From positions 1 to 36,439 of the forward strand of contig CAYVWL010000002.1 of the NCBI GenBank assembly GCA_964455475.1: DNA of 36,439 bases, given 5' to 3'. The translations under genes were made by a program, and so were the position numbers. The notes under the pieces were generated by a model. It was not told the DNA's origin, ran no database searches, and saw nothing but the letters and a program-made list of their open reading frames with translations. Position 1 is the first letter of the stretch. Each line of letters opens with the position of its first letter. The stretch is from an uncultured Candidatus Saccharibacteria bacterium (GTDB lineage: Bacteria; Patescibacteriota; Minisyncoccia; Phycocordibacterales; GWA1-40-21). Of the stretch, positions 23,405 through 34,467 are shown in pieces.

Positions 23405-24400
23405 GTCAAGGAAAATGTTATGGTTCAATAGCTTGGAAACACTTCCCCATATATACTATGAAAATGTCATACACAAAGAATCCGTATCTCCCCAAGGTCC
23501 GTCAGGACGCCGCCGACTTGGTCCGTCGCGGTTGGGGCGTGAGAAAAGTCGCCAGATATGTCGGGGTCAGTCCGGGGACGATCACCAAGTGGGTTAAGAG
23601 AGCTAAGGTAATTGGCTACCACCCCATCCCCACCCTGTCCTCACGACCAAAACATCATCCGCGACAACTGAGCAGTGAATTGGTTTGGAAAATATATCAT
23701 AAACGAGTTCAGATTAAACGGAGCGCCGAGGTGGTCAGACAGGAATTGATCAACGAAGGAATACCGGTGTCCCTGTCTTCGGTCAAACGAACTTTAGACC
23801 GGATGGGTTTGCTAAACAAGAGAAGTCCGTGGAAACGATATCATTTGCCAATCCAGCGACCAGACGTCCAAAAACAAGGTGATTTGGTGCAAATTGACAC
23901 TGTTCACCTTCTGAACGAACATGGGAAAAGAGTGTACGTTTTCACTTTGCTTGATGTGTATTCACGATATGCTTTTGCTCGCGCCTACGAACGAGCGACT
24001 TCAGCCACCGCTTTTCGTTTTCTGAATTGGTGTCAGAAGCAAGTAGATTTCAAATTCCAAACCGTCCAAAGTGACAACGGTTCCGAGTTCGCTGGTTGGT
24101 TCAGTGATCATATTAAATCCGTCCACCGACATACCAGAGTGCGAAGACCAAATGACAATGGACACCTGGAGAGATTCAACCGCACGGTGCAAGAGGAATG
24201 TTTGGACAAGGTGGAAAAGAAAGTTTCGAAGATCAATCAAGCCCTGACAAAATACATGAAATATTACAACGAAAAACGTCTGCATTTTGGGTTGAATTTG
24301 CAGACACCTTTACAAGCTTTAACTAACAAGTGTTTCCAAGGTATTGATTAGAATACGGGAAAATAAGGAGAGAGCAAAAGCGAGCGACTATATTTTCCTA
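23405..24400 (+). mobile_element. IS481-family-like insertion sequence (boundaries approximate)
   Basis: Single DDE transposase ORF. An imperfect terminal inverted repeat is possible: AAGGAAAATGTTATGG near 23411 against the reverse complement of CGACTATATTTTCCTAT near 24385-24401 (an AGGAAAAT core plus scattered matches). No direct repeats seen. Confidence 0.5.
23458..24351 (+). CDS. IS481-family DDE transposase (HTH + rve integrase core)
   Basis: N-terminal HTH (RRGWGVRKVARYVGVSPGTITKWVKR). DDE candidates in LVQIDTVHL, VQSDNGSEF and NGHLERFNRTVQEE, with retroviral-integrase-like spacing. Confidence 0.8.
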   Translation: MKMSYTKNPYLPKVRQDAADLVRRGWGVRKVARYVGVSPGTITKWVKRAKVIGYHPIPTLSSRPKHHPRQLSSELVWKIYHKRVQIKRSAEVVRQELINEGIPVSLSSVKRTLDRMGLLNKRSPWKRYHLPIQRPDVQKQGDLVQIDTVHLLNEHGKRVYVFTLLDVYSRYAFARAYERATSATAFRFLNWCQKQVDFKFQTVQSDNGSEFAGWFSDHIKSVHRHTRVRRPNDNGHLERFNRTVQEECLDKVEKKVSKINQALTKYMKYYNEKRLHFGLNLQTPLQALTNKCFQGID

Positions 24401-25218: not shown

Positions 25219-25938
25219 TTATCTATGCTTCTTCAATATATCCTTAATTTTACTAGTGAATCTCTCTGATCTTAAATACAAATATTCCTTAAATGTGTTG
25301 TATTTTCTTCTCATAAATAAGTCACTATCCACATTATTATACATAAATTCAAATAATTTCATAGTGTCTGTAGTGTTGTAACGTAGTTGATATGATCTAT
25401 GGCTAGTATATATTTTGAAGTTCTTCTTATTTGTAATATGGTTAATTGATGTCCCTAAACCTGTAAGGAAGTCAGTACTTCCACTAGTGAAAGCGATTAG
25501 TAATCTTTTCAAAATAGATTGACCATTTATTCCAATTGATTTCTCTAAATAAACGCATCCATCTCCATCAAAATATCCTCTGATAAAATGCCTAAGTTGG
25601 GTATTTGGTACTTTTGGAAATTTCACGTTAAGTGATTTATTTGGGTATAAACCTATCTCACCCAATCTGGCATATAGTCTGTGACTACCAATTCTCAGAG
25701 TATACCTAGTCTGTCTAGTTTCAACTAATTGTGCCTCAACCTTTATCTTATGCTCAGATTTCAATAGCTTTTTAAACAATATGATCCGATCCTTATCTAT
25801 ACTAGTTACAGATATGTATCTTGCTCTTATATAACTGCAGTCAGATAGGCTACCATCTGCATAGAGATATCCAAGAACGTAGGCCATTTCTGGTCCCCAT
25901 TTGTGGAAGAATTCCTCATTTATTTTATGTTTGAACAC
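25219..25938 (-). CDS. LAGLIDADG homing endonuclease, free-standing, two-motif (monomeric type)
   Basis: Motifs LGYLYADGS and IRGYFDGDGCV, about 100 aa apart. Very AT-rich. GTG start 6 nt downstream of a TATAAT box. The stop lies 3 nt from the 5' end of tRNA-Cys. Confidence 0.85.
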   Translation of the reverse strand: MFKHKINEEFFHKWGPEMAYVLGYLYADGSLSDCSYIRARYISVTSIDKDRIILFKKLLKSEHKIKVEAQLVETRQTRYTLRIGSHRLYARLGEIGLYPNKSLNVKFPKVPNTQLRHFIRGYFDGDGCVYLEKSIGINGQSILKRLLIAFTSGSTDFLTGLGTSINHITNKKNFKIYTSHRSYQLRYNTTDTMKLFEFMYNNVDSDLFMRRKYNTFKEYLYLRSERFTSKIKDILKKHR

Positions 25939-30361: not shown

Positions 30362-30420
30362 GAATAATATTTTAATTTTCCTTGCAAGTTGTAACTGGAA
30401 TTATATAATTAGATGTAGAT

Positions 30421-30726
30421 ATGTTTTATACCTATGTTTTACGAAGTCTAAAAAATGCCAGTCTGTATACTGGTTATACAAATGATTTGCGAGCAAGGGT
30501 CCATGAGCATAACAGTGGACTTTCTGAATATACAAAGAAATATTTACCATACGAGTTAATCTATTATGAATCGTGTTTAGATGAGGGTGATGCTAGGGCG
30601 AGAGAAAAACAGTTAAAGACGGGGTTGGGGAAAAGGTATTTAAAATTAAGGTTAAGGAGGTTTTTTAGAAAAAGCATTGTGGGCATGGATCCCGTTCGAT
30701 GTTCAGGGAGGAAAGAGTCTATATAA
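30421..30726 (+). CDS. Small GIY-YIG (URI-domain) nuclease family protein
   Basis: FYTYVLRS...LYTGYTNDLRARVHEHNSG ... YYESC...ARAREKQLK. This is the classic layout of stand-alone GIY-YIG proteins of about 90 aa. Confidence 0.8.
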   Translation: MFYTYVLRSLKNASLYTGYTNDLRARVHEHNSGLSEYTKKYLPYELIYYESCLDEGDARAREKQLKTGLGKRYLKLRLRRFFRKSIVGMDPVRCSGRKESI

Positions 30727-30794
30727 GTTGTAAATTTATCAAGTTAGTAGTACAATTGTTGTTAAGGTTAATAATTAAAACATCAAACGGGATG
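30689..30794 (+). promoter_or_regulatory. Leader element copy A: 15-bp arms enclosing a promoter and overlapping the start codon of the HtrA-like gene
   Basis: ATCCCGTTCGATGTT (30689-30703) pairs with AACATCAAACGGGAT (30779-30793) at 14 of 15 positions. The loop holds TTGTAA-17-TACAAT (30728-30756). The 3' 27 nt are nearly identical to copy B. Confidence 0.7.
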
Positions 30795-31670
30795 GATATG
30801 GAGAAACTCACAAAACAACAGATAGTTTTGGTCACGCTTTTGGTGAGCTTTGTGACTTCTATTGCCACAGGGATTGTGACGGTGGCCCTGATGGACCAGG
30901 CACCAGCGGGCGTGACACAAACGATAAACCGCGTGGTGGAGAGGACGATTGAAAAGGTAGTCACCGAGCCAGCTAAAAATAATAATACTGCCGCAGTGGT
31001 GACGCGCGAGACTATTGTGGTGAAAGAGGACGACAAAATCGTGGAGTCCGTGGATAAAAATAAAAATAGCATTGTTCGTATTTATACTAAAATGGATAAT
31101 GCCGGAGACGTGGCCGGGAATACTTTTATTGGTCTTGGTACCATCGTCTCCAAGGAGGGCCTGATTGTGACCGGTGATGTGTTTGCGGATCAGAGTGGTA
31201 AATATTTAGTGACCGTGGATAATAATAAATTCTATTCCGTAAAAGTTCTACCTAGAAAAGGCAATAGTCAATTTTATTTCTTGAAAGTTATTCAGGATGA
31301 AAAAGCTCCTGTCATTTTTTCACCGGTTAGCTTTTCTGATTCTAGTGGTTTAAAGCTGGGCCAAACCGTGATTGCTTGGGGTGGGCAAATTCAGAATTCG
31401 GTTTCTACTGGTATTGTTTCCAGCCTCGTGGATGTGGAGGGTAAGGTAGAGCAAGCCAGCACCACGGCCTCTACCACCAAGGTGGTCACCAGAGAAATTA
31501 TTGCTATCAATACCAATATTAATCTGGCAGACAGCCTCTCCGGTGGGCCACTCCTAAACCTTTATGGTGAAGTGGTGGGGATCCGCGTCAGCTCGGGCAT
31601 TTCCGAAAAATATAATTTTCTCCCCTCAAATCTCTTAAAGTCTGAAGTTTTGGCCGTGACTGCCCTTTAG
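30792..31670 (+). CDS. Membrane-anchored trypsin-fold HtrA/DegP-like protein without PDZ, with catalytic His and Asp apparently replaced
   Basis: Start taken at ATG 30792 (MDMEKL..., followed by the TM LVTLLVSFVTSIATGIVTVAL). S1C-like blocks GLGTIVSKEGLIVTGDVF, LKLGQTVIAWGG, STGIVSS and SLSGGPLLNLYGEVVGI. Where HtrA has TNNHV this protein has TGDVF. Where HtrA has D(I/L)ALLK it has QFYFLKV. Confidence 0.7.
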   Translation: MDMEKLTKQQIVLVTLLVSFVTSIATGIVTVALMDQAPAGVTQTINRVVERTIEKVVTEPAKNNNTAAVVTRETIVVKEDDKIVESVDKNKNSIVRIYTKMDNAGDVAGNTFIGLGTIVSKEGLIVTGDVFADQSGKYLVTVDNNKFYSVKVLPRKGNSQFYFLKVIQDEKAPVIFSPVSFSDSSGLKLGQTVIAWGGQIQNSVSTGIVSSLVDVEGKVEQASTTASTTKVVTREIIAINTNINLADSLSGGPLLNLYGEVVGIRVSSGISEKYNFLPSNLLKSEVLAVTAL

Positions 31671-31725
31671 TTTGAATTATTCTCACTTTCTGCTATTATA
31701 AATTTATCAGTCTTTTTGCATTTTG

Positions 31726-31830
31726 ATCCCGTTTGAAGTTCTGGGATGGTGATTTTGTGATGATGTTGAATTTAATAAGAAATTGTTATAATGTGTATTA
31801 GCGTTAATAATTAAAACTTCAAACGGGATG
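31726..31830 (+). promoter_or_regulatory. Leader element copy B: 15-bp perfect arms enclosing a promoter and overlapping the clpB start codon
   Basis: ATCCCGTTTGAAGTT (31726-31740) pairs perfectly with AACTTCAAACGGGAT (31815-31829). The loop holds TGtTATAAT (31784-31792). The distance from the -10 box to the ATG is the same as in copy A. Confidence 0.7.
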
Positions 31831-34467
31831 CCCCCATTTAATAATTTTACAACCAAAGCCAAGGAGGTGATACGCCGAGCCCACGAGCTGGCTATTGAGC
31901 GTGGCCAAAATCATGTAAACCCCACTCATTTATTGATGGCCTTGATTATGCAGGAGGAGAGTATGGTGTCCTCAATTTTAGACAGACTGGAGATAGATGT
32001 GATGTCTCTCACGGATACCTTGCTAGAAGTAATTGACAGCATTTCCGCTGGTACCAATATCTCTTCACCCGCCATGCAAATATATCTGACGCCGGATTTG
32101 GCATTGGTGATAGAATCCTCGGGCAAGATTGCCAAGGAGCTGAAGGATGATTTTATTTCCACTGAGCATTTATTTATTAGTACTATGGATACACCCAGCC
32201 AAGCACGAGATATTTTAGCGCGTTATAAAATTGACCGGCTAAAAGTAGTAAAAATCTTAGAGGAATTTAAAAACAATAATATTACAGAAGTTCCCACCAC
32301 AAAAAAGTTCAAAGCAATTTTAAAATATACCCGAAATCTGACCAAGCTGGCCAAGGAAAATAAGCTGGACCCCGTGATCGGCCGTGATGTGGAGATTAGC
32401 CGTATCATTCAGATCTTGTCACGACGCACGAAAAATAATCCTATCCTGATTGGTGAGGCGGGGGTGGGCAAGACGGCGATAGTAGAGGGTCTGGCTATCC
32501 GGATGTCCACGGGGGATGTGCCAGAGTCTTTGAAGGATAAAGAACTGGTGTCCTTGGATATGGGTATGCTCATTGCTGGGACCAAATATCGTGGAGAGTT
32601 TGAAGAGCGTCTAAAAAATATAATAAAAGAGATTGAAAAGTCTGAAGGGAAAATAATTGTTTTCATTGATGAAATACATACTATTGTTGGGGCCGGTTCG
32701 GCGGAAGGCTCGCTTGATGCCTCAAATATGCTCAAGCCAGCTTTGTCCCGTGGTGAATTCCGCACCATTGGTGCCACCACCACCAAGGAATATCAGAAGA
32801 TAGAAAAGGATCCGGCGCTCACTCGGCGCTTTCAGTCTGTCTATGTAAATGAACCGTCCATTGAAGATGCTATTGCTATCATGCGTGGGCTAAAAGATAA
32901 ATATGAGTTGTATCACGGAGTGCGTATTACAGACGATGCTATTATTGCTTCGGTAAATCTAAGCTCGCGCTATATTACTGATAGATTTCTACCAGACAAA
33001 GCGGTAGACCTGATAGATGAAGCGGCCTCGTCCTTAAAAATTTCTTTGGAGAATATGCCACCGATTTTAGAGGAGACACATAGGCGAGTCCTGCGTCTAG
33101 AGATCGAACGTGAGGCCTTGCGTAAGGAGGCGGAGAGTGGGGACATGAAAGCCAAAACTCGCACCAAAATAATTGAAAAAGAAATTGCCGATCTGAAAGA
33201 AAAGACTGCGGAGATAGAATTGAAATGGAAAAATGAAAAGGAAACTATCACGGATATTAAAGCGTTGAAAAAAGGCTTGGAGCAGGCCAGAATAGAAGCG
33301 GAATCAGCGGAAGCACGGGTAGACTTGGCCAAGGCTGCGGAAATCCGTTATGGCACAATTCCCCAGATGGAAAAAGATTTGGCGACAAAAGTAAAGAGAC
33401 TGAAAACTTTGCAAAGCTCGCGCCAAATGCTCAAGGAAGAAATTGGTGAGGAAGATATTGCAGACATTGTGTCAAAATGGACCGGTGTGCCGGTGATGAG
33501 GATGCTCGAGGCTGAGGCGGAAAAATTGAATCGGATGGAAGAGGAATTGAAGAAAAGGATAATCGGTCAGGATGAAGCGGTGAAAAAAATAGCAGATACG
33601 GTAAAGCGTTCTCGGGCCGGCATCTCGGATCCAAATAGGCCTATCGGCTCGTTTATTTTCCTTGGCCCCACCGGTGTGGGAAAGACAGAGCTGACCAAGG
33701 CTCTGGCAGAATTTATGTTTGATGATGAGAAAGCCTTGATCCGTGTGGATATGTCTGAATTTATGGAGCGCCATTCTGTGTCAAAGCTGATTGGCTCACC
33801 GCCGGGTTATGTGGGTTATGAGGAGGGGGGCAATCTGACGGAGATGGTGCGTCACCGCCCTTATTCCGTAATCCTCTTTGATGAGATAGAAAAAGCTCAT
33901 CCGGAGGTGTTTAATATTTTACTGCAGGTGCTGGATAATGGCCGGCTGACGGATGCCAAGGGGCGTACGGTGAACTTTAAAAATACCGTCATCATTCTCA
34001 CCTCCAATATCGGCGCACAATACATTGATAAGATGGAAGAGATTGGCTTTAGTATGGAGAAGAGTAAGCATAATGAATATGAAGATGTGAAAGGCAAAGT
34101 CACCAAGGCCCTGAAGGATCATTTCCGTCCGGAATTTTTAAATCGTTTGGATGATGTGATCATCTTTGATATCTTGAGTGAGAAGGCGGTATCACAGATT
34201 GTGGATATTCAGTTGGAGATTGTCCGTAAGAGATTGGAAGAAAAAGAAATAAAATTAGTGATCAGTAAGGAAGTGATTTCGTATCTCGCGCGTGAAGGTT
34301 ATAATCCGCAGTATGGGGCCAGGCCCTTAAAGCGCTTGATTCAGGAAAAGATTTTGAATCCGGTGGCCGGCCTTATGATTTCCCGTGGCGTGCTCGCCGG
34401 TGGGGTAGTCACCGTTGGTTTTAAGAATAAAGAGTTCACCTTTGAGGTGAAGGGGAAGAAGAAATAA
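31828..34467 (+). CDS. clpB: ATP-dependent chaperone/disaggregase ClpB
   Basis: Clp N domain. Two AAA+ modules ([15 protein letters not shown]; [15 protein letters not shown]). A long coiled-coil M-domain lies between them ([11 protein letters not shown]...[10 protein letters not shown]). [19 protein letters not shown]. Confidence 0.96.

Follow-up and report, generated by a model that had tools for sequence, protein, structure and literature searches.

An inverted-repeat unit on the clpB start codon of a Saccharibacteria genome is probably a gene-less miniature of a GIY-YIG cassette

A 36,439-nt stretch of DNA from an uncultured Candidatus Saccharibacteria bacterium (contig CAYVWL010000002.1, hereafter the window) carries, immediately before the clpB gene and running into its start codon, a short unit closed by two inverted arms. 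The best explanation for this clpB leader, and one that we hold to be probable, is that it is a gene-less miniature of a mobile cassette encoding a GIY-YIG nuclease, which sits on the start codon and drives clpB from a promoter located in the loop between the arms. On this reading, the unit is neither a stress operator nor a dedicated RNA switch. This explanation builds on the observations that the unit is an insertion and a member of a structured family, that the family has a parent encoding a GIY-YIG protein, that the arms covary, and that arms and promoter are conserved in place.

The arms of the clpB copy, ATCCCGTTTGAAGTT and AACTTCAAACGGGAT, are 100% complementary over their 15 bp and are separated by 74 nt, and the clpB start codon is composed of the final AT of AACTTCAAACGGGAT and G31830 (Table 1). 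With its 104 bp, its perfect 15-bp arms and its lack of any open reading frame (ORF), the unit has the size, the terminal inverted repeats and the non-coding nature of a miniature inverted-repeat transposable element (MITE). A first-pass annotation of this DNA had proposed 15-bp terminal inverted repeats around a unit of about 105 bp, as well as a −10 box inside the loop, equally distant from the start codon, both here and in a second copy on the start codon of an htrA-like protease gene. The coordinates bear out these points: there are 36 nt from 31792 to A31828 in the clpB copy and 36 nt from 30756 to A30792 in the htrA copy, where the TACAAT box (30751-30756) is preceded by TTGTAA at −35 with a spacer of 17 nt.

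With up to three mismatches allowed, the arm pattern was found six times in the window, whereas shuffled sequences gave 1.4 on average and none of 100 shuffles reached six. In the whole genome (654 kb, 42% G+C, of the candidate phyla radiation (CPR) type) there were 16 arm matches, as compared with 0-1 for the reversed control. A structure-aware census of this genome, which provides the genome-wide count that the first-pass annotation had proposed, revealed 14 dispersed units, 11 of them exactly on the start codons of unrelated genes. Seven long copies (~104 bp) occupy the start codons of htrA, clpB, murA, an ABC ATPase gene, rpmI, the phosphoketolase gene (xfp) and topA; among the seven variant copies, four are on the starts of uppP, rpsL, pilC and a membrane-protein gene, and the remaining three are close to the start codons of thrS, dnaX and rpsE without occupying them. 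Every copy with a readable orientation has the same direction as the downstream gene; a short hairpin on contig C5 matches both strands. The ATG contained in the 3′ arm is the true start, because the N-termini of the downstream proteins look typical of their families and match those of congeners where these were read (murA, topA, clpB, htrA and rpmI). In the case of clpB, the N-terminus is the same in 12 of 13 congeners and differs by one residue in the remaining one. A search of Rfam gave nothing above the gathering score of any family, and a known RNA family was rejected, as the matches obtained were sub-threshold chance matches.

The comparison with congeners indicates that the unit is an insertion at the loci where empty sites are available (G000 denotes this genome, with contigs numbered C1, C2 and so on, and other G numbers denote the other genomes compared). 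In front of murA, six congeners have the promoter TGcTATACT followed by 6-7 nt and ATGAATTTT, without the unit; in this genome the identical extended −10 promoter precedes ATGA, the unit (ATCCCG...CGGGATGA) and ATTTTGAG. Similarly, topA is preceded in 12 congeners by a CATACT-type promoter (AATACT in some of them), 10 nt and ATGAA(A/G), two further congeners lack the unit behind a different upstream sequence, and in this genome the unit is inserted after ATGA. The clpB leader is free of the unit in all 14 congeners with a readable junction. In these congeners htrA and clpB overlap in five cases, are separated by a 9-nt gap in G014 and by a spacer of 42-112 nt in seven. The promoter TTGAAT-16-TGcTATTAT was found at four spacer-type junctions, namely those of G006, G012 and G011 and the part retained in G000 itself, and G002 and G009 have in common a leader tail that reads ..CATTTTGATTTTTAAT..ACT before the ATG. 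G000 has retained the native promoter and the leader as far as ..GCATTTTGA (31725), with the unit in place of the final ~24 nt. The idea that a long target had been duplicated at clpB was considered and rejected, since the spacer has no significant similarity to the clpB start and the congeners identify it as native leader. Empty sites at murA, topA and clpB together with dispersed copies amount to the insertion polymorphism known from MITEs.

A search for target-site duplications had been recommended in the first-pass annotation. Most loci show a flank duplication, clpB being an exception. The pentamer before TCCCG is identical to the pentamer after CGGG at 23 of 37 loci (the duplicated pentamers are ATGAA, ATGGA and ACGAA, and in G089 four of five bases match, TTTCA vs ATTCA), and none of 10000 permutations of the 3′ flanks among loci was as good as the observed match. 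A further 20 copies have repeats of 4, 5 or 6 bp, all with the A of the ATG as their first base. No flank duplication was found for the clpB copy or for a subfamily with short loops. The latter was observed at G000 C30:3308-3374, C8:20802-20869, C3:28307-28373, C4:10903-11007 and C12:1199-1266, with a short loop in four of the five; its arms, GTCCCG..TGGGAT, form two G.U pairs on the sense strand, and its four start-codon copies lie exactly on the ATG behind a conserved 5′ flank ACYTG. This subfamily may insert by a different route.

The position on start codons extends well beyond this genome. The 12-mer ATCCCGTTAGAR occurs in 147 of the 401 genomes of the order, with up to ~45 matches per genome and a reversed control near zero. 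When 20 arm pairs were sampled from this search without regard to their flanks, all 20 ended in ATG, and in 18 of them this ATG opens an ORF read for at least 77 codons. In G000, about 510 of ~2300 ATGR sites whose occupation would not break a gene are start codons; as starts make up at most about one quarter of the available sites, against 20 of 20 copies, chance insertion followed by purifying selection is insufficient to explain the start preference. This preference reflects either the insertion mechanism or a strong retention bias, for instance if imprecise deletion could not remove copies from essential starts. The idea that the element targets transcription bubbles at leaderless promoters was dropped, since operon-internal starts (ABC ATPase, rpmI, pilC) are also occupied. 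The topA start codon carries a copy in three genomes, with differing arm types (L053/L066 in G053, L068 in G021 and the copy on C48 of G000), which, with 14 congeners of G000 lacking the copy, suggests repeated independent insertions at the same gene start.

The origin of the unit is indicated by longer relatives. Two long copies in other genomes, with ~280 bp between the arms, enclose an intact ORF for an 86-aa GIY-YIG protein in the orientation of the host gene. A translated search with the small GIY-YIG gene of the window found relatives in 251 of the 401 genomes of the order, and 29 of these loci, spread across the order, were inspected. A 5′ arm was located at most 70 nt upstream of the gene in 26 of the 29 loci, and a 3′ arm at or just after the end of the ORF in at least 18. 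In about 15 of the 29 the protein ends in ..RFLSLTG, ..RFLFRTG or a similar tail, the last codons constitute the 3′ arm (TCT CTA ACG GGA TGA in one example) and the TGA stop overlaps the host ATG. Arms and C-termini go together, the variant TTAGAGAT/ATCTCTAA being paired with SLTG and the variant TACGAAAT/ATTTCGTA with FRTG, and decayed copies of ~190 bp retain recognisable codon remnants. The small proteins have 82-101 aa and match the GIY-YIG domain of Pfam (1e-14 and 1.4e-15); the nearest solved structures of the CPR protein are those of the UPF0213 proteins 1ZG2 (E = 1e-4) and 1YWL. Within the genus, units are present in seven of eight genomes with a strong GIY-YIG match vs one of eight without, a co-occurrence that is only suggestive, the genomes being related. 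Most likely, judging from the sequences, the 105-bp units are ORF-less derivatives of GIY-YIG cassettes; this descent rests on the shared core, on the shared type of site with its duplication, and on the intermediates in other genomes. Other GIY-YIG paralogues of the genus (L152 at G002:C33, L160 at G004:C1 and L161 at G011:C4) are likewise closed by a stem, but their arms are entirely different; in one example, CCCGGTAGTAGATTTTCAAT / ATTGAAAATTCACTACCGGG, TATG stands on either side. Several sublineages therefore coexist.

These results refine the proposal of the first-pass annotation that the unit is a MITE-like module delivering a promoter and a start site. Its nature as a derivative of a mobile element stands, given the empty sites in congeners, the dispersed copies and the flank duplication at most loci. 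The start site is not delivered, as the unit duplicates or abuts the ATG of the host itself, and the loop promoter is not a constant cargo, being found in the local subfamily in the copies that lack a native promoter at the 5′ ATG. Moreover, the parent with the same ends encodes a GIY-YIG nuclease and is not an insertion sequence (IS) with a transposase, as a MITE in the strict sense would require. A scan of the genome detected no match to DDE_Tnp_1 and none to Y1_Tnp. The only IS in the window is an IS481-like element (23425-24347) with a 297-aa rve-type transposase and 20-bp terminal repeats, TCAATAGCTTGGAAACACTT / AAGTGTTTCCAAGGTATTGA; it was rejected as the mobiliser, as these repeats are unrelated to the arms. 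A resemblance to integron attC sites, judged by eye, was also discarded, the motif order GTT...AAC being the reverse of the attC order RYYYAAC...GTTRRRY.

The arms behave as the two strands of a structure. The long-range stem is the minimum-free-energy fold in eight of eight copies tested. In a set of 32 distinct arm pairs with 15 positions each, 96.3% of the cells are paired, eight of the 15 positions have changed on both sides and 54 cells are compensatory, a covariation score that was reached in none of 500 shuffles. Positions 2-7 (TCCCGT) are invariant or nearly so, and positions 8-15 covary; a conserved foot with a free but complementary stem fits an enzyme that recognises a structure, and not a repressor that reads a sequence. 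Arms and promoter are also conserved in place. Between the rpmI copies of G000 and G015, the first 26 nt are identical (26/26), the final stretch of 43 nt that runs from the P1 −10 box up to the ATG differs at one position (42/43) and the middle is ~60% identical, with third codon positions of rpmI identical at 49%. The htrA copies of three species have kept the −35 box, the extended −10 box and both arms at 47-48% identity of third positions. At both loci for which orthologous copies exist, the arms outlast saturated synonymous sites. A box C(A/T)GGGAGGA (CAGGGAGGA) follows the 5′ arm immediately at 31741-31752, at 30704-30715 and at the same place in the other local copies, and it is conserved between paralogous and orthologous copies despite a host that lacks a Shine-Dalgarno system. 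Its interpretation as a Shine-Dalgarno site was rejected, since the genome barely uses such sites and the 3′ end of its 16S rRNA lacks CCTCC.

Regarding the expression of clpB, promoter-like sites alone are not above chance in the AT-rich window (6 vs 3.4 ± 1.6 in shuffles), and the credibility of the loop promoter derives from positional and orthologous conservation and not from the frequency of such sites. In the htrA, clpB, ABC ATPase and rpmI copies, and likewise in the orthologues of these, the last base of a −10-like hexamer lies 34-35 nt ahead of the ATG. The local subfamily provides 11 independent loci: six have a native −10 box 5-11 nt before the 5′ ATG but lack the loop promoter (murA, xfp, topA, a dprA-like gene, lepA and grpE), four have only the loop promoter P1 (htrA, clpB, ABC ATPase and rpmI), one has both and none has neither (one-sided Fisher exact p = 0.015). 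In this subfamily the loop promoter occurs in copies without a native promoter at the 5′ ATG. The clpB copy, which has no 5′ ATG, has the best box, TGtTATAAT. Of the 13 local copies, 10 have a second hexamer (P2) at a distance of 15-16 nt from the ATG and two more have it at 19 nt; it could be a promoter or part of an unstructured A/U-rich leader. Upstream of 357 of 387 long ORFs there is no Shine-Dalgarno 4-mer, and a −10 signal is seen at −12 to −7. In agreement with this scarcity, the 16S rRNA gene (C14, about 185-260, beyond the window) ends after helix 45 in ..GTAACAAGGCACGGGTAGCGGAAGCTGCTCGTGGAAATTTTCAAATT and has no CCTCC anti-Shine-Dalgarno tail. What translation in this organism is expected to require is therefore an open, A/U-rich leader. 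From these sequence features, clpB is now probably driven by the extended −10 promoter in the loop.

We propose the following course of events. The full-length element is a unit of ~275-300 bp with a single gene for an 86-aa GIY-YIG protein, common in this order of the CPR/Patescibacteria. It is closed by a stem in which a 5′ arm pairs with the final codons of the ORF; these serve as the 3′ arm, and their terminal TGA overlaps the host ATG. Such elements are found exactly at host start codons, always in the reading direction of the host gene. At clpB, the unit inserted behind the native promoter, took the place of the last ~24 nt of the leader and came to abut the ATG, and the present loop would be what was left of a full-length element once its GIY-YIG gene had been lost. 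Initiation at the native promoter is predicted to yield transcripts with both arms and with the A and U of the AUG buried in the 15-bp stem; because of this, clpB is most likely expressed from the loop promoter, whose transcript would have an unstructured leader of ~28 nt without a Shine-Dalgarno site. The arms themselves would exist as a hairpin that the element needs, probably as a single-stranded DNA substrate of the nuclease, by analogy with the Ssn family, and the masking of read-through transcripts would be a side effect. The first-pass annotation had suggested that the unit insulates translation from read-through. Such insulation may be a physically plausible consequence, with the native promoter at 31672-31699 giving two-arm transcripts, but the existence of the arms can be explained without it.

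Several points weigh against this explanation. No full-length element with the exact arms of the subfamily of this genome (TTYGAWG) was found, and the GIY-YIG gene of the window is not enclosed by arms of its own, which makes the link to the parent indirect. As to the predicted use of the promoter, promoter-like hexamers are frequent in AT-rich DNA, and the model does not account for the expression of the essential genes murA, topA and xfp, whose copies are without a loop promoter. The clpB copy is also atypical with regard to the route of insertion, having a 24-nt target deletion and no flank duplication. Furthermore, the conservation of the arms exceeds what would be expected for a dead transposon scar, and hints at a role at the level of the host or of the RNA; homogenisation among copies by the nuclease could be another source of this conservation.

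A role at the RNA level is the content of the first alternative, to which we give a small but real chance. In this case the hairpin would be a selected device kept by the host, the 5′ arm masking the AUG in transcripts from upstream promoters for insulation or translational coupling, and translation would occur only from the loop promoter or after a ribosome starting on a leaderless 5′ AUG had opened the stem. Every copy folds into the stem at minimum free energy, with the A and U of the AUG inside it, and the arms are conserved at saturated synonymous divergence (rpmI in two species, htrA in three), but this conservation could equally be due to homogenisation by the nuclease. The large majority of main-subfamily copies sampled have a start codon ahead of the 5′ arm, often 5-11 nt behind a native extended −10 box, as in leaderless transcripts; the clpB copy, however, has no 5′ ATG. 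In five of the seven local copies C9 of the 5′ arm breaks one pair and avoids a TGA in the frame of the 5′ ATG, and in the ABC ATPase copy the upstream ORF crosses the whole unit to a TGA overlapping the host ATG, but upstream ORFs vary in frame and length, from 4 to 35 codons. Wobble pairs and mismatches give no clear strand signal (17 G.U vs 7 C.A-type cells on the sense strand, shared within subfamilies), and over the last 60 nt of the leader ATG shows no stronger depletion than its complement CAT, although the shuffle null is a poor one here. Finally, a cis-regulatory leader would be conserved in orthologous leaders, and the clpB unit is absent from those of 14 of 14 congeners.

A second alternative, which we consider about as doubtful as the first, makes the hairpin a working part twice, as single-stranded DNA substrate of an Ssn-like nuclease and as an RNA structure that hands ribosomes over to the host gene. 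The nuclease would install the cassette at gene starts by a repair or microhomology route and not by classical transposition, which would explain the duplications of 4-6 bp from the A of the ATG, the deletion at clpB and the homogenised arms. In the RNA, the stem would set a leaderless 5′ AUG beside the host AUG, so that ribosomes loaded at the 5′ end would be passed to the host gene, and copies without a loop promoter (murA, topA and xfp) would depend on this hand-off.

The remaining alternatives fare far worse. It is very improbable that the unit is an inverton in which a site-specific recombinase flips the 74-bp loop and turns the promoter towards or away from clpB. Inverted repeats do bracket a promoter-like box, the same repeats occur at several loci, the genome encodes one tyrosine and one serine recombinase, and Correia elements have been reported to invert (PMC10969869), but the loop has a single orientation relative to the gene in the ~57 copies inspected, including orthologues in three species, no recombinase gene adjoins any copy, and 74 bp is very short for inversion. 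Even less credible is a DNA-looping operator, an option also raised in the first-pass annotation with the arms as half-sites around the promoter, bound by one repressor that would control a stress regulon: the window copies precede a protease gene and clpB and the arms are ~89 bp apart from centre to centre, but other copies precede murA, topA, rpmI, xfp, an ABC ATPase gene, uppP, rpsL and pilC, positions 8-15 of the arms covary so that there is no single half-site sequence, the unit is absent at the same genes in congeners (from the clpB leader in 14 of them), and the 3′ arm is coding sequence in full-length elements. A heat-shock operator of the HrcA/CIRCE, CtsR, HspR or sigma-32 type was rejected, since copies precede murA, topA, rpmI, xfp and other unrelated genes.

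The copy on htrA adjoins the sole small GIY-YIG gene of the genome (30421-30666), which lies directly upstream of it. The encoded protein is a candidate for the enzyme that would act in trans on gene-less copies. Its ORF has no stop of its own ahead of the htrA copy and continues into the 5′ arm, ending in ..RRFFRKSIVGMDPVRCSGRKESI before the stop; in two congeners, the same ORF ends at a TAA supplied by the arm variant GTTTAATG. Elsewhere in the genome, a decayed copy at C14:11006-11110 lies between rplR and rpsE, and the sole in-frame ATG for ribosomal protein S5 is located inside its loop; part of this copy appears to have become the 5′ end and an N-terminal extension of rpsE.

Table 1. Positions of the clpB and htrA copies and of associated features in the window; promoters are predicted.
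Feature	Position	Strand	Remarks
clpB copy, 5′ arm ATCCCGTTTGAAGTT	31726-31740	+	core TCCCGT invariant across the family
clpB copy, 3′ arm AACTTCAAACGGGAT	31815-31829	+	last two bases are A and T of the clpB start codon
clpB copy, loop	31741-31814	+	74 nt, AT-rich, no ORF
Extended −10 box TGtTATAAT (P1) in clpB loop	31784-31792	+	hexamer 31787-31792; ends 35 nt before the ATG
Second −10-like hexamer AATAAT (P2)	31806-31811	+	inside the conserved GTTAATAATTAAAAC box adjoining the 3′ arm
clpB gene	31828-34467	+	879 aa
Native clpB promoter TTGAAT-16-TGcTATTAT	31672-31699	+	upstream of the 5′ arm; conserved in congeners with an htrA-clpB spacer
htrA copy, on the start codon of the htrA-like protease	30689-30793	+	arms 30689-30703 / 30779-30793, 93% complementary
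htrA copy, promoter-like site TTGTAA-17-TACAAT in loop	30728-30756	+	TTGTAA 30728-30733, TACAAT 30751-30756, 17-nt spacer
Duplicated ATGGA of the htrA start, 5′ copy	30685-30689	+	3′ copy at 30792-30796
Small GIY-YIG nuclease gene	30421-30726	+	domain to about 30666; own promoter TTGCAA-16-TATAAT at 30382-30409

Among known selfish elements, free-standing GIY-YIG homing endonuclease genes, such as the seg genes of phage T4, are one-gene units wedged between intact host genes; we know of none with a terminal stem, miniatures, a short flank duplication or a start-codon position. An ORF for a LAGLIDADG-type homing endonuclease (25219-25938, minus strand; motifs ..LGYLYADGSL.. and ..GYFDGDGCV..) was also observed in the window between housekeeping genes. 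With the palindromic elements of Rickettsia, the unit shares the condition of a small hairpin-forming selfish repeat tolerated in or beside essential genes of reduced genomes; unlike them, it is not read in frame inside coding sequence, but remains at the first codon, outside the ORF, and derives from a parent that encodes a protein.

MITEs that bear promoters are well known, as is the case of the Correia elements (CREE/NEMIS) of Neisseria and others (PMC2649163, PMC10969869). The unit resembles Correia elements in its size class (~100-150 bp), non-coding nature, terminal inverted repeats and many dispersed copies just upstream of genes, and also in the sigma-70-like promoters able to drive the neighbouring gene, the co-transcribed hairpins and the insertion polymorphism between relatives. 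It is not one of them: Correia elements have a TA duplication, repeats of ~26 bp, an IHF site and RNase III sites, none of which was noticed here (no search for an IHF site was made), whereas this unit has ATGRA flanks and 15-bp arms with a TCCCGT core, abuts the start codon to the nucleotide, always faces the gene, duplicates 4-6 bp from the A of the ATG and derives from a GIY-YIG cassette and not from a transposase IS.

The closest parallel is found in the Ssn nucleases, small GIY-YIG proteins whose genes are flanked by hairpin repeats (NTS/dRS3/SRM) that are cut only as single-stranded DNA, the core dRS3 being ATTCCC-N8-GGGAAT (Chenal et al. 2025, PMC11893778); an insertion-sequence-like layout was noted by the same authors (PMC11893778). 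Both systems have a single-domain GIY-YIG protein (~90-100 aa in Ssn), repeats on both sides of the gene (here in 26 of 29 loci for the 5′ side and at least 18 of 29 for the 3′ side) and many gene-less hairpins (here in 147 of 401 genomes), and the hairpin cores are of a similar type, ATTCCC..GGGAAT in Ssn vs ATCCCG..CGGGAT here. They differ in that the NTS of Neisseria is a short hairpin of its own, whereas in the present cassettes the stem spans the whole gene, joining the 5′ flank to the 3′ end of the ORF, and in that neither an association with start codons nor a flank duplication is described for Ssn. The CPR protein may belong to the Ssn family (cd10448); its nearest solved structures are those of UPF0213 proteins. 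We found no published description of a GIY-YIG cassette, or of its miniatures, on start codons.

With regard to annotation, much of what appears as regulatory inverted repeats at gene starts of CPR/Patescibacteria may be the footprint of one selfish family and not of stress regulons. This family is among the smallest gene-carrying mobile units, and is apparently mobilised by a GIY-YIG nuclease and not by a transposase. Essential genes survive its presence on their first codon, apparently because it rebuilds the ATG and uses, depending on the copy, a leaderless promoter of the host or a promoter of its own. These copies offer a natural test bed for translation start at internal AUGs in bacteria without a Shine-Dalgarno system, and a possible mobile-element context for Ssn-type nucleases of single-stranded DNA.

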